64,000 bases of DNA from Acidobacteriota bacterium (GCA_012719455.1 JAAYAJ010000022.1:21713-85712); one strand, 5' to 3'. Counted from the first letter of the stretch, positions 1 to 49,441 are shown. Notes: generated by a model from the letters alone, not told the origin. Numbers and translations: made by a program.

Positions 1-90
1 CGGGGTCGCCGGGCGCTGACGGCTCCCCGGCCGGAGGGGCATGCTCCCGGGAATGCAATAGCGTATCGGATCGTCTTCGAAAGGGGCGTT

Positions 91-5772: not shown

Positions 5773-5792
5773 GCCGAAGGAAGGGGACCGGC

Positions 5793-7973: not shown

Positions 7974-8014
7974 ACCGGCACGCCCCCTTGGAACAAATCA
8001 TCGGCTGGCGGCCG

Positions 8015-8743: not shown

Positions 8744-8843
8744 AGAGTGTGCTCCCTGTCTCGAAAAAGGGGACGCATGCCCCCGAATACATTTCTGACC
8801 GGCAAAGGTTACACCTTGCCCCCCAGATCCGTCCAGTCCACCC

Positions 8844-32819: not shown

Positions 32820-33011
32820 GATGCTCTGCACAGTGTACCATTGCCGGCGCGGAATCCGGATCCCTATTTGGTCCTCTTCCCGCAGCGGGGGAACCGGTAA
32901 CACTTCGGCGCCGGCTGCGTATCCATTCGCAGCAAAATCATCGTCAAGGGGGAAGCAGGCGGGTGCGCCTGCCTGCCGGCAAGGGAACCAGTCATGACAA
33001 AGGAGCCAGCC

Positions 33012-33704
33012 ATGACGAAATCAGCATTCACAACCGCAGTTTGCTGTGCCCTCCTGGCCATCGGCCTGACCCTCCCCATTCCGGGAGCGGGCGCGGAGGG
33101 GACGGCGGCGCTCGATGCCCGGGTACGGGAGACCCTCGCGGGCCACAACCGGTCCTGGGAAGGGATGAACGTTCCCGAGGTGGACGGCCGGGCGCTTTAC
33201 GAGCTTGTCGTCCGGAACAACTACAAGTACGCGCTGGAGATCGGGACCTCGAACGGGTACTCCGGGCTCTGGATCGCCTGGGCCTTGTCAAAAACGGGAG
33301 GAAAACTGATCACCCTTGAAATCGACCCGGGGCGCCACCGGGAGGCGCGCGGGTATTTCGCGGCGGCGGGCCTGGACCGCTATGTCGACGCGAGGCTGGG
33401 GGATGCGCACGAAATGGTGCCCGCGCTCGCGGGCCCCTTCGATTTCGTGTTTTGCGATGCCGACAAGGAGTGGTACGTGAAGTATCTCGAGGCCGTCCTG
33501 CCCAAACTGACGGTGGGGGGGATGTTCGTGGCTCACAACGTTTCGGAATACCCGGCGCGCGGGGGCCGTTTCGGGAGAGGAAGACGGGGCGGCGGTGCCG
33601 CCGGCGATTTTCTGGAGTTCGCCCGCGGGCTGCCGAACCTGGAAACCTCCATCCTGGATATTCCAGGCTCGGCGGGCCTGAGCGTCAGCCGCAAAAAACC
33701 ATAA
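33012..33704 (+). CDS. Class I SAM-dependent O-methyltransferase (family 3, CCoAOMT-like) with N-terminal signal/anchor
   Basis: SAM motif I LEIGTSNGYSGLWIA. Acidic motif FVFCDADK. Hydrophobic N-terminus AFTTAVCCALLAIGLTLPIPGAGA. AAGGAG RBS 7 nt before the 33012 ATG (32994 is an alternative start). Confidence 0.7.
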   Translation: MTKSAFTTAVCCALLAIGLTLPIPGAGAEGTAALDARVRETLAGHNRSWEGMNVPEVDGRALYELVVRNNYKYALEIGTSNGYSGLWIAWALSKTGGKLITLEIDPGRHREARGYFAAAGLDRYVDARLGDAHEMVPALAGPFDFVFCDADKEWYVKYLEAVLPKLTVGGMFVAHNVSEYPARGGRFGRGRRGGGAAGDFLEFARGLPNLETSILDIPGSAGLSVSRKKP

Positions 33705-33722
33705 GGGGCCGTCCGGTCGCGC

Positions 33723-34877
33723 TCATTCCGCCCGGCGGCGGCGGAAGGCGGGCTCGTCGAGGTTGTCCTTGAGCGATTCCAGCTGGTAGTCGATCGTCTT
33801 GCTCGCCTCGGACGACGTCAGCGGGATGACGTTCCCCCCACCCCGGGCGTACTCGCCCATCCCCCTGGGCCGCTCATCCGCGCCCTGGTTGAAGCCGGTC
33901 GCAATGACGGTGATCTTGATGCGGTCTTCCATCTCTTCATCGTACACCGCGCCGAAGATCGTGTCCTCGGCCCCCGCTACATCTTCGATGATCTGCGCGG
34001 CCGCGGCCACCTCGTGCAGTCGGAGGCTCGCGCGCGTCGCCGTGATGTTGATGAGCATCCCGCGGGCGCCGCGGATCGAGGTCTCCTCGAGCAGGGGACT
34101 CGAAATCGCCCGCTGGGCGGCCTCGACGGCGCGGTTTTCTCCCTCTGCCACCCCGGTTCCCATCAGGGCCATTCCCTTGCCGGACATGATGGTGCGGACG
34201 TCGGCGAAATCGACGTTGACGATGCCGGGCATGGTGATGATGTCCGAAATCCCCTGGACCGCCTGGCAGAGCACGTCGTCGGCGTAGCGGAAGGAGTCCT
34301 CGAGCAGGGCGTCGGCTCCCATGGCGCAAAGCAGTCGTTCGTTGGGGATGGTGATCAGGGTGTCGACCACTTCCTTCAGTTCGTTGATCCCCTCCTCGGC
34401 GTGGAGGAGGCGTTTCTTCCCCTCGAAGTTGAAGGGCTTGGTGACCACGCCTACCGTCAGCGCCCCCAGCTCGGTGGCCAGGCTGGCGATGATGGGTGCG
34501 GCGCCTGTCCCGGTCCCGCCCCCCATTCCGGCGGTGACGAAAACCATGTCAGCCCCGTCGAGGAGTTCGATGATCCGCTCGGTGTCCTCGAGTGCCGCCT
34601 GGCGCCCCCTCTCGGGGATGGCGCCGCAACCCAGGCCATTGGTCAGCTTGGTGCCGATCTGCAGCTTTATGGATGCGTGCGAGTTGCGGAGGGCCTGGAT
34701 GTCGGTGTTGGCGGCGATGAATTCAACGCCGCCGATTTTCGCCTGGATCATGCGGTTGACGGCGTTGCCGCCCGCTCCGCCGATGCCGATGACCTTGATC
34801 TTGGCCGGCGGCTGCCGGTCCTCGTCGAACCTGAATTGCAAAGGTTCTTCCTCAAAACGTAATTTCTCAGATTGCAT
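33723..34877 (-). CDS. ftsZ: Cell division GTPase FtsZ
   Basis: Tubulin signature [10 protein letters not shown]. Typical N-terminus [16 protein letters not shown]. Confidence 0.9.
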
Positions 34878-34892
34878 CGACTCCCTCCTATC

Positions 34893-36119
34893 CTAGTTCC
34901 CGGCCCATGACAGAATTCGGTTGAACAACCAGGGGGTGCTTCCCGCCTTCCCCGGTTTTTTTCTTAAAACCCCGGCCTCTTCCGCCCCAAAGAGGGCCAG
35001 GCCCACCGCCGTCGAGTAGACGGGGTGGGACAGTTCCTCGGTCAGCCCCCGCAGGCCCAGCGGGAGCCCCTGGCGCACCGGCATGCCCAGAATTTCCTCG
35101 GAGAGCTCCACCATGCCGTCGAGCATGCTCCCTCCCCCGGTGACGACCACTCCCGCGATGAGACTGTCGCTCGTGATCCCTTTCCTGAGCTGGTCGGCGA
35201 CCAGTTCCAGGATTTCGACCGCGCGGTCCCGCAGGATGCCGCAGATCACCTTTCTCGGCACGTTACGGGCGGCGCGGGTCCCCATCCCGGGGACCAGCAC
35301 GAACTCTTCCGCCGCGATCCTTTCGGTGAGGACCGTTCCGGCTTCCTTCTTGATGCGCTCGGAGTCTTCGAGCGGCGTCTGCAACCCGATCGCCAGGTCC
35401 CTGGTGAAGTGGGCGCCCCCCACCGGCAGGACCTTGGTGAAGTGGACCGCGTCGCCGAGGAAGACGGCGATGTCGGTGGTGCCCCCCCCGATATCGATGA
35501 TGGCGGTTCCCAGGTCCTTTTCGTCCCGGGTCAGGACGGCCTGGGCGCTCGCCAGCGGCTGCGCCACCACCTTTTTTACCCTCATCTGCGCGCGGTTGAC
35601 CGCGTTGATCAGGTTCTGGTTGAGCGTGCTCTGGCACGTCACGACGTGGATGTTGACGTCGAGCTGCGACCCGAACAGTCCGACGGGGTTCTTGATCCCC
35701 CCCCGGTCGTCCAGGACAAATTCCTGCGGCAGGACGTGGATGACCTCGCGGTCGGGCGAAATCGGCACCGATTGCGCGGCGGCGATGACCTGCGCCATCG
35801 CTTCCGCCGTAACCTCGTGGCGGTTCCCCTCGATGGCGATGGCGCCCCGGGAATTGAAGCTCTGGAAATGGTCCCCGGTGGCTCCCACGATCACCCAGTC
35901 CACCGAAAGCTCCGACTTCATTTCCGCCTCGTCGGCCGCCCTGCGGATCGATGACGCCGCCGCGTCGAGATCGATGACCACGCCCTTGTGCAGCCCCGCG
36001 CTGTCGGCGTACCCCGTGCTGATCAACTCCAGGCCCCCGTCCCGGTGGGTCCGGGCGATCATCATGCAGATCTTGGTGGTCCCGACATCCAGTCCACAAA
36101 CGATGCGATCTTTTTTCAC
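34893..36119 (-). CDS. ftsA: Cell division protein FtsA
   Basis: Actin-fold ATPase (GLDVGTTKI…DIGGGTTDIAVF…). Position between ftsQ and ftsZ. Confidence 0.9.
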   Translation of the reverse strand: MKKDRIVCGLDVGTTKICMMIARTHRDGGLELISTGYADSAGLHKGVVIDLDAAASSIRRAADEAEMKSELSVDWVIVGATGDHFQSFNSRGAIAIEGNRHEVTAEAMAQVIAAAQSVPISPDREVIHVLPQEFVLDDRGGIKNPVGLFGSQLDVNIHVVTCQSTLNQNLINAVNRAQMRVKKVVAQPLASAQAVLTRDEKDLGTAIIDIGGGTTDIAVFLGDAVHFTKVLPVGGAHFTRDLAIGLQTPLEDSERIKKEAGTVLTERIAAEEFVLVPGMGTRAARNVPRKVICGILRDRAVEILELVADQLRKGITSDSLIAGVVVTGGGSMLDGMVELSEEILGMPVRQGLPLGLRGLTEELSHPVYSTAVGLALFGAEEAGVLRKKPGKAGSTPWLFNRILSWAGN

Positions 36120-37057
36120 GGGTTCCCCTGTCTCCGGTCTTCAAGTTTCGCCGTCTGGTTTTTCGACGGATCCGTCTGCCGCAGCCGGTAGACGATCTGA
36201 CTGTCGAAGCGGAGGTCGATGCGCTCGATTTCCGTGTACTGGTCCTTCAGCTTGCGGTACTCGGCGGGGTTGTTGACGAATTTAGTGAAGCGCTTCAGGT
36301 AGTCCTTCTCGCCGAGGACCACTTCGGCCGTATCGTTCACCAGCACGACCTTCAGGTTGTCGCGGTCCGCGATGTCCACCTCCGAGATGATCCGGGTGTA
36401 ACGGGGGGACCCCGAGGCGATCTCCGCGAGCATCTCCAGGCCCCGGGTGATACGCGCGCTGTTCTCCTCCTGGTACATCTGGTAGGTCTCCGCGTCTTCC
36501 CCCATGACGCCCCTGAAAACCGGGACGTCCAGCTTTCCGAACCTCGGTTCGTAGCGACCGAGCAGGACGCCCTCGGCGTCGGTGACCATCAGTGCGCCGT
36601 TCATTTCCAGGATGACGGCCGGAACGCGCTCCCGGACGTAAAGGACAAGGTCCGAGGGGAGAACCCGGAGGACCTCCACTTCGTGCGCCCAGGTTTCCTG
36701 CATGAGGCGCCCCCGGACTGCGCCGAGGTCGAGCTTCAGGATGTTCGCCGGGAACTCCCGGAGGACGATGGCCTCCAGCCGGGCGGGGTCGAGTTCGCGG
36801 CAGCCATGGACCCGGACCCGCCGCAGGTTGAAAACTTCGGCGCCCGTAGCGTAGATGTAGCCCGAGACCAGGGCCGCGACCAACAGGAGCAGGGCTCCCG
36901 CCCTGCCCGCCGCCCTGAGCAGGGCGGCGAACCGGCGTCCCGTCATGGGGCTCTGGCCCATGTTCCGGGGATTCTTTTTCCGGGACCGCGCCCTGTCCGG
37001 GGGCGGAACGATCCGGGTGGCGCGCGCTTCCCGCGGCCGGTTGGTTCTGATCTCCAT
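36116..37057 (-). CDS. ftsQ: Cell division protein FtsQ/DivIB (POTRA)
   Basis: Basic cytoplasmic N-terminus, single TM helix, then POTRA-like periplasmic domain. 4-nt overlap with ftsA. Exact start uncertain. Confidence 0.7.
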   Translation of the reverse strand: MEIRTNRPREARATRIVPPPDRARSRKKNPRNMGQSPMTGRRFAALLRAAGRAGALLLLVAALVSGYIYATGAEVFNLRRVRVHGCRELDPARLEAIVLREFPANILKLDLGAVRGRLMQETWAHEVEVLRVLPSDLVLYVRERVPAVILEMNGALMVTDAEGVLLGRYEPRFGKLDVPVFRGVMGEDAETYQMYQEENSARITRGLEMLAEIASGSPRYTRIISEVDIADRDNLKVVLVNDTAEVVLGEKDYLKRFTKFVNNPAEYRKLKDQYTEIERIDLRFDSQIVYRLRQTDPSKNQTAKLEDRRQGNP

Positions 37058-37097
37058 GGTCCTCGATGCCCGTCGGGGCGTTGCCGCCCCGGGGCTG

Positions 37098-38459
37098 CTA
37101 TGACTTAAGAAATTCCTCTCCCAGTTTCCAGACGTCCCCGGCGCCCAGTGTCAAAAGTATATCCCCATCCCGGAGCCTTTGCCCGAGAAGTTTCAGCGCG
37201 CTGTCCGCGTCCGGCGCATGAACCGCGTCCGGGTGGCCGAACTTCCTGATCCCCTCGACCAGCCTCCCGGCGTCCACTCCCGCGATCGGGTCTTCGCCCG
37301 CGGCGTAGATAGGGAGCACGATGAGCGCGTCGGCGTGGCGGAAGGCGTGGGCGAACTCCTCCATGAGCGCCTGCGTCCGTGAATAACGGTGGGGCTGGAA
37401 GAGGGCGACGATGCGGCGGTTGCATGCCTGGCGCGCGGCGTGCAGGGTGGCCACGATCTCCGTCGGGTGGTGCGCGTAGTCGTCCACCACCAGGATGTCT
37501 CCCTTCTTCCCCCGGATTTGGAACCGGCGGTCGGCGTTCTGAAAGGAGGCGAGGGCTCGCGCCGCCTTTTCAAAGGGGATCTCCATCTCCAGGGCCGTCG
37601 CCACCGCCGCCAGTGCGTTCAGGATCGCGTGCGCGCCCGGGATCTGCAGCTTCAGGATGCCGAGCGGCCGGCCGTGGCGATGCACCCGGCACTCGGATCC
37701 GAAACCGTGGAATTCGATGCCGGAGGCGACGATGTCGGCCTGGCTGCCGGTGCCGTAGGTGACCGTCCGCCGTCCGATCCTCGGGAGGATCGCCTGTACG
37801 TTCGGGTCGTCGAGACAGAGGATGACGGACCCGTAGAAGGGGACCTTGTTCGCGAAGGCCACGAAGGTGGCCTGGATTTCGTCCAGGTCGGCGTAGTGGT
37901 CGAGGTGCTCCCGGTCGATGTTGGTGATCACGGCGATGGTGGGGTTCAGCTTGAGGAAGGAGCCGTCGCTTTCGTCCGCCTCGGCCACCAGAAAATCCCC
38001 TTTCCCCAGCTTGGCGTTGCTCCCGAAGGCGTTCAGCCTGCCGCCGATGACGGCGGTGGGATCCAGTCCCCCGGCCACCAGCACGGTGGCGATCATGGAG
38101 GTCGTGGAGGTCTTGCCGTGGGCCCCGGCGACGGCGATGCCGTATTTCAGCCGCATCAACTCGGCCAGCATCTCCGCCCGGGGGATGACCGGGATCTGCA
38201 GCCGCCGGGCTTCGACCGCCTCTACGTTGTCCGGCCGGACGGCCGAAGAGGTCACCACCACGTGGGCCCCCGCCACGTTTTCCGGCCTGTGCCCGAGGTA
38301 AATCCGCCCCCCGAGCGCCGCCAGCCGGTCCAGCGCCGGGCTCGGCTTCAGGTCCGAGCCCGAAACCTGGTAGCCGAGGTTGAGGAGCAGCTCGGCGATG
38401 CCGCTCATGCCGATGCCGCCGATTCCCACGAAATGGAGTTTCTGGATCTTCCTGAACAT
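37098..38459 (-). CDS. murC: UDP-N-acetylmuramate--L-alanine ligase
   Basis: [16 protein letters not shown]-terminal motif. Mur ligase P-loop [11 protein letters not shown]. 453 aa from [10 protein letters not shown]. The 146-aa upstream extension in the track was rejected. Confidence 0.9.
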
Positions 38460-38461
38460 GG

Positions 38462-39571
38462 TTATCCGGGCGCCTCCGCCAACTTGTTCTGGTAGGAAAG
38501 GTTGAGCAACACGCCCGTGGCCAGCATGTTCAGCCACAGCGAACTCCCCCCCTGGCTCATGAACGGCAGCGCGATCCCCTTGGTCGGCATCAGCGCCAGT
38601 ACCATGGAAATGTTGATGAGCGCCTGCAGGGCGACCATGAGGGTGATGCCCAGGGCGAGGTAGAACCCGAAACGGTCCCGGGCCCGCAGGGCGATGCGCA
38701 CCCCGCGGAGGAAATAGATCAGGAAGGCGACCACCACCAGGGTCGTGCCGATGATGCCCAACTCCTCCCCGATTACGGCGAAGAGGAAATCGCTGCTCGC
38801 CTCCGGGAGGTAGAAGAGCTTCTGCCTGCTGGCGCCCAGGCCCAGCCCGGTCACCCCCCCGCTGCCGACGGCGATCAGGGACTGGGTGATCTGCCACCCC
38901 GTTCCCATAGGGTCCTCGAACGGGTTCCGGAAAGCCTGGATCCGGTCCCAGCGGTAGGGGACTTTGACCACGAAAAAGTAGAAAGCGGGGATGGCCAGGG
39001 CCGCGGCGCCGAGGAAATAGCGCCAGGAGAGCCCCGCGACGAACAGGAGCACCGTGACGATCAGGCAGAGGCAGAGGGCCTGCCCGAGGTCGGGCTCGAC
39101 GGCGATCAGGACGGCGAAGAATCCGACGGCCAACCCGAGCGGAAGCAGTCGGCGGGAGAACCGGTTGATCTCCCCCTCGTACCGGTGGAGGAACCAGGCG
39201 ACGAACATGAGCACGGCGAGCTTGGCGAATTCCGAGGGCTGAAAGCCAAAGCTCCCGAAGTGGAGCCAGCGGTGAGCCCCGTTAATGGCGGGCTGGGTCA
39301 GGACGAAGAGCAGGAGGACCACGCAGAGGGACAGGAAGGGGATCAGGACCCTGGGGTTCTGCCAGCGGCGGTAGTCGATCTTCATCACGCCGTACATCAG
39401 CACCAGGCCTATCGCAGCGAAGGCCAGCTGGCGCAGGAAGAAGTAGGACGACATGCCGTGTTCGGACGCGGCCTTGACCGAGGACGCGCTGTATACCATC
39501 ACCAGGCCGAAGATGGCCAGGAACCCGGCGGTGAAGAAGAGAATCTTGTCGCTGCTCGGTTTATAAGCCAT
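38462..39571 (-). CDS. ftsW: Peptidoglycan glycosyltransferase FtsW (SEDS family)
   Basis: About 370 aa from [13 protein letters not shown]. Ten TM segments. SEDS-typical motifs. Confidence 0.85.
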
Positions 39572-40982
39572 GGGATCGATCCTCGGGGGGGGCGAGGCGC
39601 GGCCCCGTTCCCCCGTCCGGCCGCGTGTCGCGGACCGCTGCCTTGAACGCGCGCCCGCGCTCTTCGTAATTACGGAACATGTCGAAACTGGCACAGGCGG
39701 GGGCCAGCAGGACGATATCGCCGGGCGCGGCCGCGTCCCGGCACACCGACACCGCTTCCGCCATCGACCCGGCGACGGAAACGTCGGTTGCGTCCTCCAG
39801 GGCCCGGCGGAGCTTGTCCGCCGCCTCGCCGATCACCACGAGCCGCCTGACCCGTTCCCGGACGAGGGGGCGCAGGGCGCGGAAATCGCCCTCCTTGTCC
39901 CTCCCCCCGGCGATCAGGAGGATGTTGCCCGGGAAAGACTCCAGGGCCTTCGCGGTCGCGTCCACGTTGGTGGCCTTGGAATCGTTGTAGTACCGCACCC
40001 CTTCCAGTTCCGCGACGAACTCGATCCGGTGTTCCACTCCCCGAAACGAGCGGACGCCGGCTTCGAGGGCGTCGGCCGGGACCCCGGCCAGGATCGCCAG
40101 GACGCAGGCCGCGAGCACGTTTTCCAGGTTGTGCCCTCCCACGAGGCCGACGGCCCCGACGGGGAAGAGGTCCCTTTCCCCATCGTCGTCGCGGTAGACG
40201 ACGCGCCCGGCGCGCACGAAGACCCCGTGCGGGAGGGTGCGCCGGCGGCTGAACAGCACCGGGAGGGAGGGTACCCCGGTCGCCATGGCGGCGGTCCGGG
40301 GGTCGTCGGCATTCAATACGGCGTAATCCCCGGCCTCCTGGTTGAGGAACAGGCGTCGTTTGGCGGCGACGTAGTCCCCGAACCCGGCATACCGGTCCAG
40401 GTGGTCGGGCGTGAGGTTCAGGATCGCCCCGGCCGCGGGACGGAAGGTGTCGATCGCCTCCAGTTGGAAACTGGAAAGCTCCACGGCGTATAGGGTTTCG
40501 GGGGTGTCCTCGTCGACGAAGCCGACCAGGGGGGCGCCGATATTGCCGGCGGCGTGGCAGCGGCGGCCGGCCCCGATTGCCAGGTGAGCCACCAGGGCCG
40601 TCGTCGTCGTCTTGCCGTTCGAGCCCGTGATCCCGAGGATCTTCCCCCGGAGGTGGCGGTACGCCAGTTCGATTTCGGCGATGACGGGGATCCCGGCGGC
40701 CCGGCTGGCGGCGAAGAGCGGGAGAGACAGGGGGATGCCCGGGCTGACCACGACCAAGTCGGAGCGGCGGAAGCTCTCCTCCCGGTGCCCCCCGAGTTCC
40801 AGCGCCAGGGCGCTGGAGCGGGCGGCGAACTCCTCGAGCCCGCTGACGGCCGGTTCCAGGCGTTCCCTCGGTTGGGAATCGGTGAGGGTCACGCGGGCGC
40901 CGCGCGCCAGCAGGAAGCGTGCCGCGGCCACGCCGCTCCTCCCCGCCCCGGCTACCAGGATCGATTTCCCGCGATAGTTCAT
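39561..40982 (-). CDS. murD: UDP-N-acetylmuramoylalanine--D-glutamate ligase
   Basis: N-terminal Rossmann LVAGAGRSGVAAARFL. Mur ligase P-loop GSNGKTTTT. 473 aa from MNYRGKS. Confidence 0.85.
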   Translation of the reverse strand: MNYRGKSILVAGAGRSGVAAARFLLARGARVTLTDSQPRERLEPAVSGLEEFAARSSALALELGGHREESFRRSDLVVVSPGIPLSLPLFAASRAAGIPVIAEIELAYRHLRGKILGITGSNGKTTTTALVAHLAIGAGRRCHAAGNIGAPLVGFVDEDTPETLYAVELSSFQLEAIDTFRPAAGAILNLTPDHLDRYAGFGDYVAAKRRLFLNQEAGDYAVLNADDPRTAAMATGVPSLPVLFSRRRTLPHGVFVRAGRVVYRDDDGERDLFPVGAVGLVGGHNLENVLAACVLAILAGVPADALEAGVRSFRGVEHRIEFVAELEGVRYYNDSKATNVDATAKALESFPGNILLIAGGRDKEGDFRALRPLVRERVRRLVVIGEAADKLRRALEDATDVSVAGSMAEAVSVCRDAAAPGDIVLLAPACASFDMFRNYEERGRAFKAAVRDTRPDGGTGPRLAPPEDRSHGL

Positions 40983-42403
40983 CCGTTCTTCTCCATGCTG
41001 AGGCCCTGGGACAGCGGGAAACGGGAACGCAGGTTCCCGACGATCTTTTCCATGTGCACCCCGCGCGAGCCCTTGATCAGCACCAGGTCTCCCGGGCGCA
41101 CGCATTCGGCGACGAAGCCGGCGGCCGTTTCGGCGTCTGTGAAGAAGCGCGACCCTGTCAGCCCGGACTCCACCCCCCCGCGGACGATCTCGGCCGCGTC
41201 CCCCCCGACTCCGATGACCAGGTCCACCCCGCGGCGCGCGGCGAAGATGCCGCATTCGAAATGGAGCCCCGCCGACTCTTTTCCCAGTTCCCGCATTTCC
41301 CCCGCGACCAGGATCCGGCGCGAAAAACAGGGTATTTCCGCCAGGGTGTCAATCATGCCCATGAGCGCCCCGGGGTTGGAATTGTAGGAGTCGTCGATCA
41401 CCGCGAACCCGGCGGCGAAGCGGAGGATCCCCCCCCGCATCTCCGCCGGCCGGAGTTCGCGGAGCCCCGCGACGAGGGTTTCCGGTTCCATCCCCCAGCG
41501 GCGGCCGAGCGCCACCCCGGGAAGGGCGTCGAGGACGAAGTGGGCGCCGGCAAACGGGAGCTCGACCGGTCCGCGGTAGCCGGGACAGGTGAGGGTGAAG
41601 CGGGTGGCTTCCGGGCCGAGGACTTGGATTTCCTCCGCGCGCACCTCCGCGGCGGGGGAGAGTCCAAAGGAGATCGTGTCGCCGCGGTAGCGGGCGGCGA
41701 TGTCGGCCACGCGCTTGTCGTCGGCGTTGTAGACCAGCAGCCCGTCGGGAGGGAGTCCTTCGGCCAGTTCCGCCTTCGCCCGGGCGATGGCGTCCACCGA
41801 ATCGAAAAACTCGAGGTGGACGGGGGCCACGTTGGTCAGGATGCCGACATCGGGCCGGGCGATACGGCACATCTCGGCGATCTCCCCGGATGCGCTCATC
41901 CCCATTTCGAAAACGCCCAGGCGGTGTCCCGGTTCCAGCCCCGTGAGCGCCAGCGGGAGCCCGTACAGGTTGTTGAAATTCCCGGGGGCCTGGTGCACCG
42001 GGAAAGCACGGGAGAGCAGTCCGGCCGCGAACCGCCGCGTCGTGGTCTTGCCCATGCTCCCGGTCACGGCCACGAGCGTGCCCGGCCAGCCCGCCCGCAC
42101 CGCTCCGGCCAGCGCCTTCAGCGCGCCGTGGGTGTCGTCGACCTCGATGAGCACGCATTCGGGGGGGAAGGGGCCGGGGTGCCGGTAGCCGCGCTCCGCC
42201 ACCACCCCCCGAGCGCCCGCCGAGAGCGCGGCGGCGATGAACCGGTGCCCGTCCAGGCGGGGTCCCCGGATGGCGAAGAAAAGGTCGCCCGGGAGGAGCG
42301 TCCGGCTGTCGATGGAAACTCCGGTGAGGAGCGTCGCGCCGGCGCCGCAGACCAGGGTCCCCCCGGTGCCCGCCTGTACCTCGGCCGCCGAAAGCCTGGT
42401 CAT
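40979..42403 (-). CDS. murF: UDP-MurNAc-pentapeptide synthetase (D-Ala-D-Ala adding enzyme)
   Basis: P-loop GSMGKTTT. MurF-typical N-terminal domain. Start MTRLSAAEV. 4-nt overlap with murD; no mraY in between. Confidence 0.8.
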   Translation of the reverse strand: MTRLSAAEVQAGTGGTLVCGAGATLLTGVSIDSRTLLPGDLFFAIRGPRLDGHRFIAAALSAGARGVVAERGYRHPGPFPPECVLIEVDDTHGALKALAGAVRAGWPGTLVAVTGSMGKTTTRRFAAGLLSRAFPVHQAPGNFNNLYGLPLALTGLEPGHRLGVFEMGMSASGEIAEMCRIARPDVGILTNVAPVHLEFFDSVDAIARAKAELAEGLPPDGLLVYNADDKRVADIAARYRGDTISFGLSPAAEVRAEEIQVLGPEATRFTLTCPGYRGPVELPFAGAHFVLDALPGVALGRRWGMEPETLVAGLRELRPAEMRGGILRFAAGFAVIDDSYNSNPGALMGMIDTLAEIPCFSRRILVAGEMRELGKESAGLHFECGIFAARRGVDLVIGVGGDAAEIVRGGVESGLTGSRFFTDAETAAGFVAECVRPGDLVLIKGSRGVHMEKIVGNLRSRFPLSQGLSMEKNG

Positions 42404-43890
42404 GACGCCTCCTCCCCGTGCCCGGCGCCGGCGCGACGGCGCAGGCACTCGAGCGCCACTTCCCGGTCGTCGAAGGGGAAGGTCCGGGTCCCGATGACCT
42501 GGTAGTCCTCGTGCCCCTTTCCGGCGATCACCACGATGTCCCCCGTTTCGGCCATGTCGACGGCGGCGGCGATCGCGCTGCGGCGGTCGGGGATGACCGT
42601 GTAGGGGGCGGGTCCTTTCTTCAGGCCCGGCTCGATTTCCCTCAGGATGTCGTCAGGGTTTTCTTCCCTCGGGTTGTCGCTGGTGGCGATCACGTGATCG
42701 CTCCATTTGGCGGCGATGGCGCCCATGATGGGACGCTTCTCCCGGTCCCGGTTGCCGCCGCAGCCGAAGACGGTGATCAGCTTCCGGCGGGGGAGCTGTC
42801 CTGCGGTGCGCAGGACGTTTTCGAGCGAGTCGGGAGAATGGGCGTAATCGACGAGCACCAGGAAGTCCTGCCCCCCCTCGACCCTCTGCATCCGCCCCGG
42901 GACCCCCGCGAGGGCGCGGATGCCGGCGCCGATTTCGTCGAGGCCGAGGCCGAGGCTGAGCCCGGCGCCGGTGGCGGCCATGATGTTGTAGGCATTGTGA
43001 CGCCCGATCAGGGGGGATTCGATCCGCGCTTCCCCCGCCGGCGTCGCCAGGTGCAGGAGGGTGCCCTCAAAGCCGCTCCGGAAGTCGAGGACATGGATGT
43101 CAGCCGCGGCGTCGAAGCCGAAGGTGGTGACGTCCGCGGCGGCCTCGGCTCGCAGCCGCCGGCCCCAGGTGTCATCGATGTTGATGACGGCGGTTTGCAG
43201 CCGGTTGCGGTTGCCGGGGGTGAAGAGGATCCTCTTCGCCTGGTAGTAGGCCTCCATCGTTTCGTGGTAATCGAGGTGGTCGCGGGTCAGGTTCATGAAC
43301 ACGCCCACCGGGAAGTGGGCGCCGTAAACCCGTTTCATCGCCAGGGCGTGGGAGGAGACCTCGAGGGTCCCGTGCGTGCACCCCAGGTCGGCCGCCCGGC
43401 GGAAAAAGCGCTGCAGGTCGGGGGCTTCCGGGGTGGTGTGCCGCGACGGGAAGTCGCGCGCGCCGATCTTCATCCCGATCGTTCCCACCAGGCAGGAGCG
43501 CAGCCCCGCGCCGGTGAAGATGGAATGCAGGAGATAGGTGCAGGTGGTCTTCCCCTTGGTCCCGGTGATCGCCGCGATTTTCAGCCCGGCCGAGGGGTCG
43601 CCGTAAAAGACGCGGGACACGTCCGCCAGGAAGGCGCGCGCGTTCTCGACCCCGACGCACTCCACCCCGGCGAGGGGGATGGGGGGGCCTTCGGAGGCTA
43701 CGGCGACGGCGCCGCGCTCGACGGCCTGGCCGATGAAGCGCGCCCCGTTCTCCTTTTTCCCCGGGATGGCGACGAACAGGTCCCCCTCCCGCACGAGGCG
43801 CGAGTCGTAGGCGATCCCCCCGATTCGGGTGTCGGCGCCACCGCCGTAGAGGATGCCGGGAATCTGTCGGAGAGCTTCCTTCAACAGCAT
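42400..43890 (-). CDS. murE: UDP-MurNAc-tripeptide synthetase (meso-DAP adding)
   Basis: P-loop GTKGKTT. C-terminal DNPR motif. 496 aa from MLLKEAL. Confidence 0.85.
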   Translation of the reverse strand: MLLKEALRQIPGILYGGGADTRIGGIAYDSRLVREGDLFVAIPGKKENGARFIGQAVERGAVAVASEGPPIPLAGVECVGVENARAFLADVSRVFYGDPSAGLKIAAITGTKGKTTCTYLLHSIFTGAGLRSCLVGTIGMKIGARDFPSRHTTPEAPDLQRFFRRAADLGCTHGTLEVSSHALAMKRVYGAHFPVGVFMNLTRDHLDYHETMEAYYQAKRILFTPGNRNRLQTAVINIDDTWGRRLRAEAAADVTTFGFDAAADIHVLDFRSGFEGTLLHLATPAGEARIESPLIGRHNAYNIMAATGAGLSLGLGLDEIGAGIRALAGVPGRMQRVEGGQDFLVLVDYAHSPDSLENVLRTAGQLPRRKLITVFGCGGNRDREKRPIMGAIAAKWSDHVIATSDNPREENPDDILREIEPGLKKGPAPYTVIPDRRSAIAAAVDMAETGDIVVIAGKGHEDYQVIGTRTFPFDDREVALECLRRRAGAGHGEEAS

Positions 43891-43903
43891 GGTTTTGTTC
43901 GCC

Positions 43904-45997
43904 TCAGGGCCGGCTGTCCGGCATTCGGGTGTCGGCGCGTTCGGCCGCGTATTGCGCCTCCGCGGCCGCCAGCGCTTTTTCGAGATTCGCCTGGACAAAG
44001 GTCACCGAACAAGTTTCCCCGCGGAAAATCCTGGTCCCGGGCGGAGGGGACTGAAAGACGGCTACTCCGGCCCCGCTTGCCTCGAGGTGGATCCCGATGT
44101 CGATGCATCGGTTGAGCACTTCACGCTTGGACTGTCCCCGGAAATCGGGCAGGGGGGCGGAATCCCCGCCGACGTGGACCGTGAGGACTCCGGGCTGTTC
44201 GGGCCCGGCCGGCCGGCGCCCGGAGAAGGACCCCAGGGGGCGCACCGGGGTGGCGTTGGGCAGGTAATCCTGGGTGCTTGCGGCCATCGGCTGCAGCTTC
44301 GGCAGCGGCAGGTTGGGGTCGGGGGGGAGCCGGAGCTGCATCAGGACCTCCTGGGTCACCCGCTTGAAAATGGGGGCGGAAACTTCGCCGCCGTAGTATC
44401 CCCGGGAGGGCTCGTCGAGCTGCACCAGCACGGTGATGCGCGGCTGCGGCAGCGGGGCGAAGCCGATGAAGGAAGCGACGTACTGGGAGGGGGAGTAGCG
44501 CCCGTTGACGATCTTCTGGGCAGTTCCCGTCTTGCCGGCCGCCCGGTACCCTTCGAGCGCCGCCCGTTTTCCCGTTCCCCGGACCACGACCCCTTCGAAG
44601 GCGTGGGTCACCGCCTCCGCCGTTCTCGGACTCATGATGCGCTCCCGTTCCGGCGCGACCACCCTGACGAGATCGCCGTTTTCGTCGATCACGCGGTCCA
44701 CGACCGAGGGGCGGACGCGGAAACCCCCGTTGGCGATGGCGTTGATGGCGTTCAGGATCTGCAACGAGGTGACCCCCACCTCCTGCCCGAAGGAGATCGC
44801 CCCGATCGACAACCCCGACCACTGGTGCCAGTCGCGCACGAGCCCGACGATTTCCCCCGGCAGGTCCACGCCGGTCCTGGAGCCGAAACCGAAGGTGCGG
44901 AGCGCCTCGTACAGCCGCTGCTCCCCCAGCCGGAGGCCCAGCTTGGCCACCCCCACGTTGGAGGAGAACTCGAGGACCTGGCTGAAGCTCAGCAGCCCGT
45001 AGCCCTTGTGGTCGCGGAACAGGTGGCCGCCGATGTTGATCGATCCCATCTGGCAGTCGATCTTCTCCTCCGGGTGCGTCAGCCCGGCTTCCAGGGCGGC
45101 CGTCGCCACGACCACCTTGAAGGTGGACCCCGGTTCGAAGAGGTCCGAGACCGCGCGGTTGCGCCAGTAATCGGCCTCGTACTCGTTGTATTTGTTGCTG
45201 TTGAACTGGGGGTGGTTGGACAGGGCGAGGATCCTTCCCGTCTCCGACTCCATCACGATGATGGTCCCGGCCTTGGCCCCCGTCGCCTCGATTCCGGCCG
45301 CCAGCTCCCGGTCGGCGATGTACTGGATCGATTTGTCGATGCTGAGCACGAGGCTCTTTCCCTGGACGGGGGGTTTGTCGACATGGACCCTGAAGGAGCG
45401 GCGGCGGGCGTCGACGTCGAAGGAGTAGATCCCCTCCGAACCCTTGAGTTCGCCGTCGTACTGGAGTTCCAGCCCCGCGCCCCCGTCCCCGTTCATGTTG
45501 ACGAACCCAAGGGTATGACACGCCAAGTCCCGGTTGGGGTACACGCGCATGCTTTCGTCCACGAAATAGACGCCGTCGAGGTCAAGGGCTTCGATGCGGG
45601 CCTCCACCTTTGGGTCGATCCTGCGCTTGAGGATCGCGAAGCTGCGGTGGGCGGGGTCGGAGAGCCGGCGGGTGAGTTTCCCCGGGTCGAGCCCTAGAAT
45701 CGACGCCAGCTCCCGGGCGGTCCCGGGGATGTCCTTCATCCGGCGCGGTTCAGCCACGGCGGTGCTCACGGTCACGCTGGTGGCGAGTTCGGCCATATGG
45801 CTGTCGTAGATGACGCCGCGCGGCGCGTGGATGGAGCGCCGCACCTGCTGCCTTTCAGAGGCCAGGCGCCGGTAGGTAGGGTGTTCGAAAACCTGCAGCT
45901 GCACCAGCCGCAACAGGATGAGAAGGCTCCAGAAGGAGATCCCCAGGATCACCAGGGCGGTTCTCGTATTCTTGGAGCTGCGGCCGCTGTTGGACAT
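43904..45997 (-). CDS. ftsI: Division-specific transpeptidase FtsI (class B PBP) with C-terminal PASTA domain
   Basis: TM anchor. SxxK (…TFKV…), SxN and KTGT transpeptidase motifs. C-terminal about 65 aa PASTA-like segment (…LTVHVGGDSAPLPDFRGQSKREVLN…GTRIFRGETCSVTF). Confidence 0.85.
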   Translation of the reverse strand: MSNSGRSSKNTRTALVILGISFWSLLILLRLVQLQVFEHPTYRRLASERQQVRRSIHAPRGVIYDSHMAELATSVTVSTAVAEPRRMKDIPGTARELASILGLDPGKLTRRLSDPAHRSFAILKRRIDPKVEARIEALDLDGVYFVDESMRVYPNRDLACHTLGFVNMNGDGGAGLELQYDGELKGSEGIYSFDVDARRRSFRVHVDKPPVQGKSLVLSIDKSIQYIADRELAAGIEATGAKAGTIIVMESETGRILALSNHPQFNSNKYNEYEADYWRNRAVSDLFEPGSTFKVVVATAALEAGLTHPEEKIDCQMGSINIGGHLFRDHKGYGLLSFSQVLEFSSNVGVAKLGLRLGEQRLYEALRTFGFGSRTGVDLPGEIVGLVRDWHQWSGLSIGAISFGQEVGVTSLQILNAINAIANGGFRVRPSVVDRVIDENGDLVRVVAPERERIMSPRTAEAVTHAFEGVVVRGTGKRAALEGYRAAGKTGTAQKIVNGRYSPSQYVASFIGFAPLPQPRITVLVQLDEPSRGYYGGEVSAPIFKRVTQEVLMQLRLPPDPNLPLPKLQPMAASTQDYLPNATPVRPLGSFSGRRPAGPEQPGVLTVHVGGDSAPLPDFRGQSKREVLNRCIDIGIHLEASGAGVAVFQSPPPGTRIFRGETCSVTFVQANLEKALAAAEAQYAAERADTRMPDSRP

Positions 45998-46103
45998 AAC
46001 GGTTCATGACGGACGAGAGTGGATCGACGACGCCGCGCGCGCGGGTTCTCCCGTCAATCGGCGCTCATCGATCGTCGGTCCTCTTTTCTGTGGCGCTTCG
46101 GTT

Positions 46104-46547
46104 TCAGTTGCTACGGTTACGACCCGAGCCGGTTCTCGGGGGCAGCTTCCTCCCCACCCCCTTCCCGGCATCGGCCAGGGCCAGGGCATAAGTCCCCGGC
46201 TCGGCGCTCCGGGCGGGCGGCAGGATGACCTGGTTCGGCCGCAGCGGCGCCATGCGGAGCTCGTTGCGGGCCAGGATGTCGATCCGTTCCGGGTTGCGGA
46301 GGGTCTCCTCCTCGAGGATCAGCCGCTTCTCGAGGCGCGCGAGCGCCTCCTCGCGGGAGAACAGGCTCTGGCTTTCATAGCCGATGCTGACGATCCGGCC
46401 GCGGACATAGGAAGAGAAAAGGAAGGCCGCGGCGATCAGGGCCAGGGAGGCGATGGTGCCGAGCAGTTCCGAGAGCATGCGGGCATCGATCCCGCGCCGG
46501 ATCCCGTAATTACGTGTTTCTATGCTGGCTGCCCAGTCTGTCATCAT
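46104..46547 (-). CDS. ftsL: Cell division protein FtsL (putative)
   Basis: Small bitopic protein (TM helix LLGTIASLALIAAAFLF plus coiled-coil segment) between rsmH and ftsI. ATGA overlap with the rsmH stop. Start uncertain. Confidence 0.55.
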   Translation of the reverse strand: MMTDWAASIETRNYGIRRGIDARMLSELLGTIASLALIAAAFLFSSYVRGRIVSIGYESQSLFSREEALARLEKRLILEEETLRNPERIDILARNELRMAPLRPNQVILPPARSAEPGTYALALADAGKGVGRKLPPRTGSGRNRSN

Positions 46548-47560
46548 GATCTCCAGGTCTCCTGTTCGGGGCGCACGCTGCCGTTCCCTGCCTCCGGGCC
46601 GGTCGCTTCCGTTCGTTCCAGTGCCCTCAGCCGCGCGCTGCGGGCCCTGGGGTTGGCTTGCACTTCATCCTCCCCCGGCGCCAGGGGGCGCGGGGTGAGG
46701 ATGCGGCCCCGAGCCTTCCGGGGGCAGGTGCACAGTTCCGGCGCGGCGTCGCAGACGCATTGTCCCGCCAGCCGGCGGAACGTCCGCTTGACGATGCGGT
46801 CTTCCAGGGAGTGGAAGGAGATGACCACGATCCTCCCCGCCGGTTTCAGGAAGTCGAAGGCTTCCATGAGCAGCTCTTCCAGTCCTTCCAGCTCTTCGTT
46901 GACGGCGATCCGCAGCGCCTGGAATGTCCGGGTAGCGGGGTGGATGCTCTGGTGCCCGCGGACCCTGAAGGCGCGGCTGACAACGGCTGCCAGCTGAAGG
47001 CAGCGGGTGATCGGGGCCCGGGCGCGTTCCCGGACGATGGCGGCCGCGATGCGGCGCGAATACCGCTCCTCGCCGTAGCGATAGATGAGATCGGCCAGTT
47101 CCGTCTCCGGCAGGTTGTTGACCAGGTCGGCCGCCGTCCACTGCTGGCTCCGGTCCATGCGCATGTCGAGCAGCTCGTCGGACTGGAAGCTGAATCCGCG
47201 TTCCGCGGCGAGCAGCTGGTAGGAATTCACCCCCAGGTCGAGCAGGATGCCGTCCACGGGCGGCAGCGCCAGGTTGTTCAGGATCAGCGGCAGGTTCTTG
47301 TAGTTGTCGTGAATCAGCCGCAGGCCCGGGCCGCAGGGGGCCAGCCGCAGTGCGGCCTTGTCGAGCGATTCCTTGTCCCGATCGATGCCGATCAGCCGCC
47401 CCCCGGGGCGGATCCGTTCCATGATCCCCAGGGAATGTCCGCCGAGGCCCACCGTGGCGTCTACGTATACGCCGCCGGGCTCGCACCGGAGCAGGTCAAA
47501 GACCTCCCGCTGCATGACCGGAAGGTGTTCGATTTCCGTGTGTCCGCCGTGAGGTGTCAT
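46544..47560 (-). CDS. rsmH: 16S rRNA (cytosine1402-N4)-methyltransferase RsmH (MraW)
   Basis: HLPVM…VYVDATVGLGGHS SAM motif. Conserved C-terminal domain. Second gene of the dcw cluster. Confidence 0.85.
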   Translation of the reverse strand: MTPHGGHTEIEHLPVMQREVFDLLRCEPGGVYVDATVGLGGHSLGIMERIRPGGRLIGIDRDKESLDKAALRLAPCGPGLRLIHDNYKNLPLILNNLALPPVDGILLDLGVNSYQLLAAERGFSFQSDELLDMRMDRSQQWTAADLVNNLPETELADLIYRYGEERYSRRIAAAIVRERARAPITRCLQLAAVVSRAFRVRGHQSIHPATRTFQALRIAVNEELEGLEELLMEAFDFLKPAGRIVVISFHSLEDRIVKRTFRRLAGQCVCDAAPELCTCPRKARGRILTPRPLAPGEDEVQANPRARSARLRALERTEATGPEAGNGSVRPEQETWRS

Positions 47561-47606
47561 GCTGTTCCGGGCCGTTACGATCACTGTTTTACCATTCCTC
47601 TTTCCG

Positions 47607-48047
47607 CTAGAAGCCCTGTTCCGCCAACTTCTCGCGTTCCTCCAGGGTGAGCGGATTCTCCTTGAGGCTCTTGCGGAACACTTCGTCGTTCCAGACCTCG
47701 AGGTGGTCCATCTTCCCGATCACGATGACGTCGCCCGAAATCGCGGCATCCTCGCGCAGCGATTGCGGGATCAGGATGCGCCCCTGGGGATCCATCTGCG
47801 TCACCAGGCCGTAGTAGCTGGTGAACCGCTCAAGCTTCAGCTTCGCCGGATCCATCCGCGGCGGCTCCTGGAACTTCCTGGCGATCCGTTCCCAGACCGG
47901 AATCGGGTAGATTTGGGCGCACCGGCCGTCGTCGCTGGTTACGTAATAGGTGTCGTCTTCGGTTTCAGGCAGGTCGCGACGGAACTTCGCGGGCAATCTC
48001 AGGCGCGATTTCTCGTCGATCTTCGCCGAATACCTACCCCAAAGCAT
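47607..48047 (-). CDS. mraZ: Transcriptional regulator MraZ
   Basis: 146 aa. Duplicated MraZ domain (…KIDEKSRLRLP… / …DPQGRILIPQSLR…). Confidence 0.9.
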   Translation of the reverse strand: MLWGRYSAKIDEKSRLRLPAKFRRDLPETEDDTYYVTSDDGRCAQIYPIPVWERIARKFQEPPRMDPAKLKLERFTSYYGLVTQMDPQGRILIPQSLREDAAISGDVIVIGKMDHLEVWNDEVFRKSLKENPLTLEEREKLAEQGF

Positions 48048-48120
48048 ATGGAATCCGCCCCTGCATCAGACGCACACATGAGTTATCATCAGCTGAAAAC
48101 GTTGTTGTGTGGCCCTAATT

Positions 48121-48150
48121 GACCACTATGAACCACTATCGACCACTTTC
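48121..48150 (-). promoter_or_regulatory. Putative MraZ operator: three direct GTGGT repeats with 5-nt spacers (GTGGTcgataGTGGTtcataGTGGT on the minus strand)
   Basis: Plus strand gACCACtatgaACCACtatcgACCACtttc, about 75 nt upstream of the mraZ start. Architecture matches the known MraZ-box (three GTGG[G/T] repeats, 10-bp periodicity). Confidence 0.5.
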
Positions 48151-48331
48151 GCTTTGAACATAAGCCCGAGGCTCATGGGGTGTCAAGGGAATTGTGGTGA
48201 TACATATGATCTTTATTGATTTTTTCTTTTTCGGCGGTTTTTTGCGGGGGATGGGCGAAATGCCTCCGGATCTCGCCTGGTGGAACGGATCCTGTGGTAC
48301 TATGCGAGGTCTTTGATTCGGGGGCGGAAAC

Positions 48332-49441
48332 ATGAAAGTGGGAATTGTCGGGTTGCCGCAGGTGGGGAAAACCACGATCTTCAAGCTGTTGACCCGGGGC
48401 CGGGTGGATACCTCTTCCTGGGGGGGCGGACGCGAGGCGCATATCGGCATCGCCGAGGTGGCCGACCCGCGCCTGGACCGGCTGGCCGCGATCGTGAAGC
48501 CGAAGAAGACCACCTATGCCACCATCGAATACGTGGATCTCCCGGGCCTGGCCCGCGGGGAAGGGAAGGCGGCGCTCGAGGGGCGGAGCAAGGAGATGGC
48601 TTCCTATCTCGCCAGCCTGAAAAACGTGGAGGCGCTGCTGCACGTGGTGAGGGCGTTTGAGGATCCCAGCCTGCCGCACATTGAAGGATCCGTGGATCCT
48701 GTTCGGGACATTGGGGTTTTCGAACTGGAGCTGATATTCGCCGACCTGGCCGTCATCGACAAGCGGCTGGAGCGGCTGGAAAAGGACCTGAAAAAGGGGC
48801 GGTCGCGGGAACTGGAGATGGAACAGGAAATCCTGCTGCGTTTCAAAGCGGCGCTGGAGTCGGAGCAGCCGCTGCGCGAACTGGAGCTCACCCCCGAGGA
48901 GGAGAGGCGGGTTCGCGGCTTCACCTTTCTTTCGGCGAAGCCGATCCAGCTCGTCATCAACGTGGGCGACCAGGATGCGGCCAAGATCGACCGCGTGGTG
49001 GAGGCGTTTGGTCTCGAGAAGCAGGCGGCCATGCCCAAAGTCGGCATCACCGCCGTGTGCGGCAAGATCGAATCGGAAATCGCCTCCCTCCCCCCGGAGG
49101 ACGCCCGTCTCTTCATGGAGGATTTAGCGCTCCCCGACAATGCCGTGGACCGGATCATCCAGAATTCCTACGAATTGCTGGGGGTGTTCTCCTACTACAC
49201 CGCCGGCGAGCCGGAGGCCCGCGCCTGGACGATCCCGAAGGACACCACCGCGGCCCGGGCGGCGGGGGTCATCCACAGCGACATCGAGAAGGGGTTCATC
49301 AAGGCCGAGGTCGTCTCCTACGACGACATGGTTCGACTTGGTTCCTTCCCGGCGGCGAAGGCCAAGGGGGTCCTGCGCCTGGAGGGGAAGGATTACCGGG
49401 TTCGGGAAGGGGACGTCATTCTTTTCCGGTTCAACGTGTAA
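48332..49441 (+). CDS. ychF: Ribosome-binding ATPase YchF/Ola1
   Basis: G1 GIVGLPQVGKTT. C-terminal TGS domain. 369 aa. Confidence 0.9.
   Translation: MKVGIVGLPQVGKTTIFKLLTRGRVDTSSWGGGREAHIGIAEVADPRLDRLAAIVKPKKTTYATIEYVDLPGLARGEGKAALEGRSKEMASYLASLKNVEALLHVVRAFEDPSLPHIEGSVDPVRDIGVFELELIFADLAVIDKRLERLEKDLKKGRSRELEMEQEILLRFKAALESEQPLRELELTPEEERRVRGFTFLSAKPIQLVINVGDQDAAKIDRVVEAFGLEKQAAMPKVGITAVCGKIESEIASLPPEDARLFMEDLALPDNAVDRIIQNSYELLGVFSYYTAGEPEARAWTIPKDTTAARAAGVIHSDIEKGFIKAEVVSYDDMVRLGSFPAAKAKGVLRLEGKDYRVREGDVILFRFNV

Follow-up and report, generated by a model that had tools for sequence, protein, structure and literature searches.

A dcw operon without mraY and murG in a lineage of uncultured Acidobacteriota

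Gene content, junctions and promoter of the dcw locus

The window (the whole 64-kb stretch of DNA that was analysed) contains a 12-gene dcw block on the minus strand (33723-48047) in the order mraZ-rsmH-ftsL-ftsI-murE-murF-murD-ftsW-murC-ftsQ-ftsA-ftsZ (Table 1). The retained unit spans 14.3 kb, and from mraZ/rsmH through ftsZ all of the 12 genes are collinear, following the canonical relative order on a single strand. MurE, MurF, MurD, FtsW, MurC, FtsA and FtsZ exceeded NCBIfam equivalog/subfamily cut-offs, and MraZ, RsmH, FtsL, FtsQ and the FtsI domains exceeded Pfam gathering thresholds. FtsQ, FtsL and FtsI scored under their NCBIfam equivalog cut-offs, and the top NCBIfam match of FtsI, also below cut-off, was of the SpoVD/PBP2 type. 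Window ORFs without a Pfam match were a coiled-coil protein (8015-8893) and queA (55185-56200).

Table 1. Features of the dcw locus and its ftsZ-side flank, in window positions.
Feature	Position	Strand	Evidence and remarks
Promoter	48157..48186	-	sigma-70-like, TTGACA-18 nt-TATGTT; upstream of mraZ
Putative MraZ operator	48122..48147	-	three direct AGTGGT repeats, 10-bp period; read from sequence
mraZ	47607..48047	-	Pfam MraZ, E = 3.6e-22, two repeats
rsmH (mraW)	46544..47584	-	Pfam Methyltransf_5, E = 4e-106; start codon uncertain
ftsL	46104..46547	-	Pfam FtsL, 24.0 bits (cut-off 22.9); NCBIfam ftsL_broad below cut-off
ftsI	43904..45997	-	Pfam PBP_dimer + Transpeptidase + PASTA; class B PBP, PASTA at C-terminus
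murE, meso-DAP-adding type	42400..43890	-	NCBIfam NF001126, 551 bits (cut-off 373)
murF	40979..42403	-	TIGR01143, 370 bits (cut-off 288.6)
murD	39561..40982	-	TIGR01087, 445 bits (cut-off 212)
ftsW	38462..39571	-	TIGR02614, 389 bits (cut-off 337.5)
murC	37098..38459	-	TIGR01082, 539 bits (cut-off 335)
ftsQ	36116..37057	-	Pfam POTRA_1 + FtsQ_DivIB_C
ftsA	34893..36119	-	TIGR01174, 398 bits (cut-off 176)
ftsZ	33723..34877	-	TIGR00065, 407 bits (cut-off 295)
O-methyltransferase (OMT)	32994-33704	+	Pfam; downstream of ftsZ
Patatin-POTRA-Omp85 protein	30624-32903	-	Pfam; downstream of ftsZ
OMT + patatin-Omp85 insertion	30624..33704	.	clade-specific; downstream of ftsZ

The canonical cluster of the E. 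coli/Geobacter type has the order mraZ-rsmH-ftsL-ftsI-murE-murF-mraY-murD-ftsW-murG-murC-(murB)-ddl-ftsQ-ftsA-ftsZ. The 12 retained genes keep this order and orientation, with tight or overlapping ORFs as in the canonical type, but mraY, murG, murB and ddl are missing from the window. At the usual mraY slot, murF and murD overlap by 4 nt (ATGA, the murF stop lying on the murD start). At the usual murG slot, the ftsW stop is separated from the murC start by a 2-nt gap, and the 40-nt gap between murC and ftsQ holds neither murB nor ddl. Overlaps of 4 nt for murE/murF, 11 nt for murD/ftsW and 4 nt for ftsQ/ftsA were read from the sequence, and the sole larger gap of the cluster is the 106 nt between ftsL and ftsI.

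The protein lengths (474, 473, 369 and 453 aa) are normal, and therefore the missing genes are not hidden as fusions; hidden or fused copies were ruled out by these lengths together with the Pfam results. No MraY, MurG, MurB or Ddl was found by Pfam scan of the other large ORFs of the window. Consistently, tblastn with Pfam-validated MraY, MurG, MurB and Ddl seeds, some of them from the closest canonical relative, gave no match below E = 0.1, either in the window or across 187 kb of DNA from the clade, and no pseudogene fragments or remnants were seen at E of 0.1 or better. Homologues of the four genes were absent from the 64-kb window and from the 10 kb beyond its right edge. The initial annotation, which had proposed the gene order, junctions too short for any extra gene and no fusion into neighbours, was thus borne out on all three points by the ORF coordinates, family assignments and protein lengths.

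The initial annotation had also raised atypical regulation. When positions 33400-48400 were scanned, the only promoter-like match was the one upstream of mraZ, and L007, L008, L066 and L009 share its CTTGACA and -10 elements. The three AGTGGT repeats are taken to be a predicted MraZ operator; L007, L008, L066 and the canonical relative L009 carry equivalent triple (G/T)TGG(T/G/C) boxes in the corresponding place. Terminator-like sites in the 15 kb scanned were no commoner than in shuffled sequence. A PmraZ-like promoter with three GTGG-type MraZ boxes spaced by 10 bp is also the arrangement of the E. coli/Geobacter cluster. Judged by these motifs, the regulation looks canonical, and the idea of atypical control is unsupported, since relatives with mraY and murG in place have the same promoter and triple boxes.

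Recurrence of the gene order in assemblies and relatives

The identical gene order was found on 23-24 contigs of independent assemblies (JGI, ENA, NCBI and Logan), the ENA contigs coming from both MEGAHIT and SPAdes assemblies. The exact FtsZ protein of the window occurs on 111 contigs, the longest of 2,853,246 bp, which also carries the exact MurD, and at NCBI the proteins from FtsZ to MurF have consecutive accessions (NLT32333-39). Genomes of the clade further include the one with proteins MDI9612496-502 and the 602-kb contig ERZ2647956 NODE_7, and JGI samples with the lineage include 3300049640-44 and 3300009652. Assembly error, raised as a possibility by the initial annotation, would mean that a collapse or mis-join took mraY and murG out of a cluster of canonical type. 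Nothing was found in favour of this, and its probability is negligible, because the same order recurs on contigs of up to 2.85 Mb from several assemblers and projects, the stop and start codons overlap frame-consistently at the junctions, and relatives that are merely 55-75% identical show the same order. This reading is effectively refuted. The arrangement described by the initial annotation is real: a tightly packed operon from which mraY and murG are cleanly gone.

The window's species and L007 (from CAZWXG01), L008 (from JAAYAM01) and L066 (from CAZXSV01), species-level relatives with 55-75% protein identity, form clade W, and all of its members have the same order and equally tight junctions. 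Mean identity among L007, L008 and L066 is 69-73%, versus 60-67% to the sister lineages L009 (from CAZHQK01), L091 (from GCA_020072565.1) and L173. The sister lineages resemble the window in having ychF upstream, rhomboid and RNase PH genes downstream and one operator type, and in lacking murB and ddl, with protein identities of 54-81%. In L009, ychF is likewise divergent from mraZ, and the rhomboid and RNase PH genes form the downstream flank in both L009 and L091. In contrast to clade W, the sister lineages retain mraY between murF and murD and murG between ftsW and murC at the orthologous locus. Their rhomboid gene directly follows ftsZ, and the insertion of OMT and patatin-Omp85 genes, present in L007, L008 and L066, is absent from them. 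This insertion gives clade W a second derived character shared by its members. Another sister lineage, L191, keeps mraY and has only a 42-nt gap between ftsW and murC, so that murG alone is lost.

No acceleration of evolutionary rate is seen in the genes that remain, mean identity to L009 being 63% for clade W and 65% for L091; lipid II is therefore presumably still made. In the synteny comparison with relatives the order was restricted to clade W, in agreement with the earlier suggestion that it is lineage-diagnostic. It is a lineage-specific gene-order variant of uncultured Acidobacteriota and not a new system.

To judge how unusual the arrangement is, dcw loci were surveyed. In 68 of the 73 loci mraY lies directly upstream of murD, which agrees with the earlier view that a cluster seldom loses mraY when the rest of it is intact. 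It is rare for murF and murD to be neighbours, and three of the five loci without mraY at that slot belong to clade W. For murG, 53 of 63 loci have the gene between ftsW and murC. The lack of murB and ddl, which had also been considered noteworthy, is ordinary: both are absent between murC and ftsQ in 21 of 53 loci, so their absence is no bar to dcw membership, and in essentially all Acidobacteriota relatives murC is followed straight by ftsQ or ftsA.

Other erosions of the compact cluster recur in the phylum, with murD missing or murG alone missing. As in the window, partially eroded clusters elsewhere have cleanly lost one or two essential mur genes, and the rest is collinear and tight. Loss of murG only is seen in L191, in L029, L039 and L052 (labelled Methylomirabilota) and in L021 (labelled Verrucomicrobiia), and loss of murD in the soil Acidobacteriota L093, L102, L107 and L142. 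Among the eroded clusters only L080 (murF-murD-ftsW-murC) has the same double loss. It is an unrelated 4.6-kb contig with a GC of 66%, labelled Clostridia, with identities of 40-54% across MurD, FtsW and MurC and 31% for the partial MurF.

Search for mraY and murG outside the operon

When the MraY of L009 was used as query, none of the best 120 clusters fell below 64% identity. As calibrated on other pairs of genes, a vertically inherited MraY of clade W should be about 75-80% identical to the MraY of L009 or L091, and it should therefore fall among these 120 clusters. Membership was looked up for 20 clusters, and no member lies on the 2.85-Mb contig, a fingerprint weakened by the fact that contig data in the cluster listing describe the representative only. 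In 19 further clusters the longest contig of the representative has the same size as that of a MurG match, which suggests that these MraYs lie in a canonical dcw cluster. Genomic context was checked for five clusters, of which four were canonical and one (L191) was without murG only. In total, the MraY of clade W was not recognised among about 28 close clusters checked, of the 68 in the relevant identity range; the other 40 or so are small, and their representatives are mostly on short contigs.

With the MurG of L009, the best 120 matches were all of the L009/L091 type, and the four that were looked up were all canonical. A metagenome contig scan with the MraY of L091, a background survey only, gave identities of at most 67% among the matches listed. 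The presumably relocated mraY and murG of clade W were thus not found in the searches made, which counts against the reading that they lie elsewhere.

These results bear on whether the window could hold a secondary, partial dcw paralogue, with a complete canonical cluster elsewhere in the genome. The chance of this is very slim, and it has no direct support beyond the fact that the genes are missing here. The flanks are orthologous to the regions around the canonical clusters of L009 and L091, the MraZ operator is conserved and the genes evolve at normal rates. Moreover, the MraY of a second cluster would resemble that of L091, and none was placed on the contig of the clade among the clusters checked.

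A fused mraY-murG gene elsewhere could have made both native copies redundant and led to their joint loss. Natural chimeras of MraY and MurG have been reported (PMC10214165), and the two genes are missing together both here and in the unrelated L080. With a concatenated MraY+MurG query, however, no protein that joins PF00953 to PF03033/PF04101 was found among the best 120 matches; these had lengths from about 400 aa upwards, ordinary MraYs of 369-371 aa having dropped out. The loss of murG alone in the intermediate L191 also argues for stepwise loss, and the fusion is considered highly improbable.

It is also conceivable that clade W makes lipid I and lipid II without orthodox, vertically inherited MraY and MurG. 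Enzymes encoded elsewhere, whether xenologous, highly divergent or non-orthologous, would have taken their place; examples would be a substitute for MurG like the one reported from Kitasatospora, or a GT4 paralogue in the role of MraY. Such displacement would account for the clean joint disappearance of both genes from the operon. It is in line with the failure to recognise the clade's MraY among the 120 closest clusters (not all checked) despite an expected identity of about 75-80%, and each close MraY or MurG that was looked up sits in a dcw cluster. An alternative lipid II synthase is on record (PMC8092295). On the other hand, only about 28 of the 68 relevant MraY clusters were checked, cluster representatives can be rare variants, and no candidate replacement was seen. 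Plain relocation of dcw genes, in contrast, is common in the phylum (murB, ddl, murD and murG). We know of no functional substitute for MraY, which counts further against displacement. This explanation is thus regarded as unlikely.

Origin and meaning of the reduced operon

Very probably, the locus is the native, orthologous dcw operon of clade W, which lost mraY and murG on the stem of the clade, and the two genes are presumed to be encoded elsewhere. The ancestral operon would have had the order mraZ-rsmH-ftsL-ftsI-murE-murF-mraY-murD-ftsW-murG-murC-ftsQ-ftsA-ftsZ, already without murB and ddl. From it mraY and murG would have been cleanly removed, probably in steps, of which the loss of murG was probably the first. 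Because the enzymes that use lipid II (FtsW, FtsI and a PBP1-type synthase) are intact, we infer that the cell still needs MraY and MurG activity. The genes are therefore presumed to lie elsewhere in the roughly 2.85-Mb genome, like murB and ddl in most of the phylum; the initial annotation had put this as a necessity.

Co-transcription of the 12 genes from the single PmraZ-like promoter is favoured by the overlaps or 2-40-nt spacing of most neighbours, and the overlaps also favour translational coupling. Transcription would apparently be under the control of the MraZ boxes; both co-transcription and MraZ binding are predicted from the arrangement of genes and motifs.

Fragmented or reduced dcw clusters are known from Chlamydiae and Planctomycetes (PMC8871954, PMC5147048), which likewise have a lineage-specific gene set. 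There ftsA and ftsZ are lost and the cluster is scattered, whereas the window fully keeps its division genes and collinearity.

The adjacency of murF to murD and of ftsW to murC, together with the OMT/patatin-Omp85 insertion, provides a clean and fixed synteny marker for this lineage of uncultured Acidobacteriota, which is represented by more than 100 contigs from JGI, ENA, NCBI and Logan assemblies. The arrangement would gain far greater importance only if the genome turned out to have no orthodox mraY and murG. Together with the intermediate L191, clade W shows that even the part of the dcw cluster that is most stable can be taken apart step by step, the remainder still being an intact unit under predicted MraZ control. 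The genes of the membrane steps, the synthesis of lipid I and lipid II, are here uncoupled from those of the Mur ligases and the divisome, which bears on the idea that assembly of a Mur-MraY-MurG complex constrains dcw gene order (PMC10214165).

Gene content and junctions of the dcw cluster

[quoted passage not shown] FtsZ, FtsA, MurC, MurD, MurE, MurF and FtsW passed the curated NCBIfam cut-offs, and MraZ, RsmH, FtsL, FtsQ and the domains of FtsI passed the Pfam thresholds. In the canonical cluster, mraY lies between murF and murD and murG between ftsW and murC. Reading the DNA directly at the junctions, together with the family assignment, confirmed the gene order, the junctions and the lack of room for mraY, murG, murB and ddl described in the initial annotation. 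MurF (474 aa), MurD (473 aa), FtsW (369 aa) and MurC (453 aa) are of ordinary size, so none of them is a fusion.

Coordinates and junctions of the features
Feature	Position	Strand	Observation
dcw cluster	33723-48047	minus	mraZ-rsmH-ftsL-ftsI-murE-murF-murD-ftsW-murC-ftsQ-ftsA-ftsZ
murE/murF junction			4-nt overlap
murF/murD junction			4-nt overlap, ATGA
murD/ftsW junction			11-nt overlap
ftsW/murC junction			2-nt gap
murC/ftsQ junction			40-nt gap
ftsQ/ftsA junction			4-nt overlap
ftsI	43904-45997		C-terminal PASTA domain, residues 616-662
Promoter-like site	48186-48157	minus	sigma-70-like, TTGACA-18-TATGTT
Promoter-like site and repeats	48122-48186	minus	three AGTGGT direct repeats, 10-bp spacing, after the site
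Post-ftsZ insertion	30624-33704		O-methyltransferase and patatin-POTRA-Omp85 (PlpD-like) gene
PBP1-type synthase	5346-7973
A2M-PbpC pair	1-7973		alpha-2-macroglobulin >1923 aa (cut by window edge), then PBP1C-type transglycosylase/transpeptidase with BiPBP_C domain
Related locus L191 (JGI 3300069203, Ga0619460_00049308)	3501-8116		ftsI-murE-murF-mraY-murD-ftsW, 42-nt gap, murC
Unrelated locus L080 (CAZTNO010000236.1)	1-4661		overlapping murF-murD-ftsW-murC
Locus L178 (ENA ERZ25039515 contig_61342)	4610-7426		murD and ftsW split into several short ORFs, cluster otherwise canonical

The PASTA domain of FtsI scored 24.4 bits (cut-off 23.2), and the best NCBIfam match of the protein is the SpoVD type. 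Such domains occur more typically in Gram-positive PBPs and kinases, which makes this one unusual for a presumed diderm; it scores higher in L091, a sister Acidobacteriota lineage.

The missing genes were also searched for outside the junctions. No Glycos_transf_4/MraY, Glyco_transf_28, MurB_C or Dala_Dala_lig domain was detected by Pfam in any other sizeable ORF of the window. The tblastn search proposed in the initial annotation was run on the window and clade DNA, its seeds (MraY, MurG, MurB and Ddl, validated by Pfam) being drawn from canonical loci. It found none of the four: no match in the window reached E ≤ 1e-5 and, once closest-relative seeds were added, 187 kb of clade DNA had none below E = 0.1. 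Nor were the genes found in the right flank, 10 kb past the window edge.

An assembly artefact was ruled out. The exact FtsZ and MurD of the window occur on 111 contigs (longest 2,853,246 bp), and all of the 23-24 longest, drawn from JGI, ENA (MEGAHIT and SPAdes), NCBI and Logan assemblies, read murE-murF-murD-ftsW-murC-ftsQ-ftsA-ftsZ. The NCBI accession numbers are consecutive from FtsZ to MurF.

A clade with the condensed cluster

A MurD scan with one genome per species gave 80 loci, which were classified by tblastn. Three Acidobacteriota MAGs have the condensed order with equally tight junctions: L007 (93% MurD identity), L008 (65%, GC 56%) and L066 (67%, GC 55%). In contrast, mraY and murG are canonical in the sister lineages L009 (MurD 59% identical to that of the window), L091 and L173 (about 62-63%). 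Nine shared proteins average 69-73% identity within the condensed lineages; against L091, L173 or L009 the figure is 60-67%. The condensed lineages have not accelerated in rate: their identity to L009 is 63%, versus 65% for L091. The flanks are orthologous: ychF is divergent from mraZ in the window as in L009, and downstream come the rhomboid gene and that for RNase PH, again as in L009 and L091. A common insertion separates ftsZ from the rhomboid gene in the window, L007, L008 and L066, and is absent from L091, L173 and L009. The identity grouping, flanks and insertion indicate a monophyletic clade whose native dcw locus is the condensed cluster, and a change that is old and fixed. The order, suspected earlier of being lineage-diagnostic, is indeed confined with the insertion to the clade when compared with L091, L173 and L009.

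The promoter-like site is the only one of its kind in the 15 kb scanned. We take the triple AGTGGT to be a putative MraZ operator, its layout resembling known MraZ operators (E. coli Pmra region). Both elements look canonical and are conserved in L007, L008, L066 and canonical L009; thus the atypical regulation considered in the initial annotation finds no sign here. The gene overlaps suggest translational coupling, and the cluster would be co-transcribed.

Rarity and other eroded dcw clusters

Loss of mraY from the cluster is uncommon, as had been supposed: mraY is directly upstream of murD in 68 of 73 testable loci, the five exceptions being the three members of the clade and two loci with an orphan murD. 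murG follows ftsW in 53/63 loci. The exceptions include L021 (labelled Verrucomicrobiia) and L029, L039 and L052 (labelled Methylomirabilota), whose clusters keep mraY but have no murG, ftsW being followed after 9 nt by murC. A cluster without murB and ddl turned out to be commonplace, because murC directly adjoins ftsQ or ftsA in 21/53 loci, Acidobacteriota relatives included; this agrees with the report that murB and ddlB often lie outside the dcw cluster (PMC8871954).

L191, a related Acidobacteriota lineage about as distant from the clade as L091, keeps mraY and has lost murG. It therefore suggests stepwise loss, as an intermediate between the canonical and condensed clusters. Among the matches listed for soil Acidobacteriota loci fetched through MraY, mraY abuts ftsW with murD gone in 4/60 (L093, L102, L107 and L142, from soil metagenomes; 7-84 nt apart, otherwise collinear), L142 lacking murF as well, and the cluster is split before mraY in 7/65. 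Clean loss of one essential gene or another from a compact dcw cluster thus recurs in this phylum. The window's combination of losses is specific to the clade. L080, a 4.6-kb contig (GC 66%) labelled uncultured Clostridia, also lacks mraY and murG; its lineage is unrelated and its arrangement independent, with 40-54% identity to the window across MurD, FtsW and MurC and 31% for the partial MurF, and no close relative was among the fetched loci. The broken murD and ftsW of L178 are probably indel errors in assembly.

Lipid II supply

The users of lipid II (FtsW, FtsI and the PBP1-type synthase) are intact. The alpha-2-macroglobulin and PBP1C-type genes form a known A2M-PbpC gene pair. For a vertically inherited clade MraY, calibration on other gene pairs predicted about 75-80% identity to the L009 or L091 protein, which would place it within the best 120 MraY clusters. 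Clusters of 72% identity or more whose representative is on a contig of 25 kb or longer were all covered, by one or another of three checks. By membership look-up, 20 clusters had no member on the 2.85-Mb contig carrying the window's FtsZ and MurD; for 19, the representative's longest contig equals in size that of a MurG match; of five examined by genomic context, four were canonical and the fifth (L191) lacked only murG. The clade MraY was not found among the clusters covered, a weak negative, since some 40 small clusters, represented on short contigs, lie beyond the checks. Natural MraY-MurG chimeras have been reported (PMC10214165), and a concatenated query returned none among its best 120 matches. 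Seven of its matches (P0448, P0458, P0459, P0463, P0474, P0483 and P0484; 570-864 aa) carry Mur ligase and MraY domains, and may be MurF-MraY fusions or frameshift read-through gene calls.

It is quite improbable that orthodox MraY and MurG are missing from the clade. Given the intact lipid II users and the normal rates of evolution in the dcw genes that remain, we infer continued production of lipid II, with mraY and murG, or substitutes for them, encoded elsewhere. The initial observation stands, and its interpretation is partly supported. The dcw cluster itself is very well known and the variant of this clade is new: it is real and lineage-diagnostic, its control elements are canonical, and it is one among several forms of erosion in the phylum.
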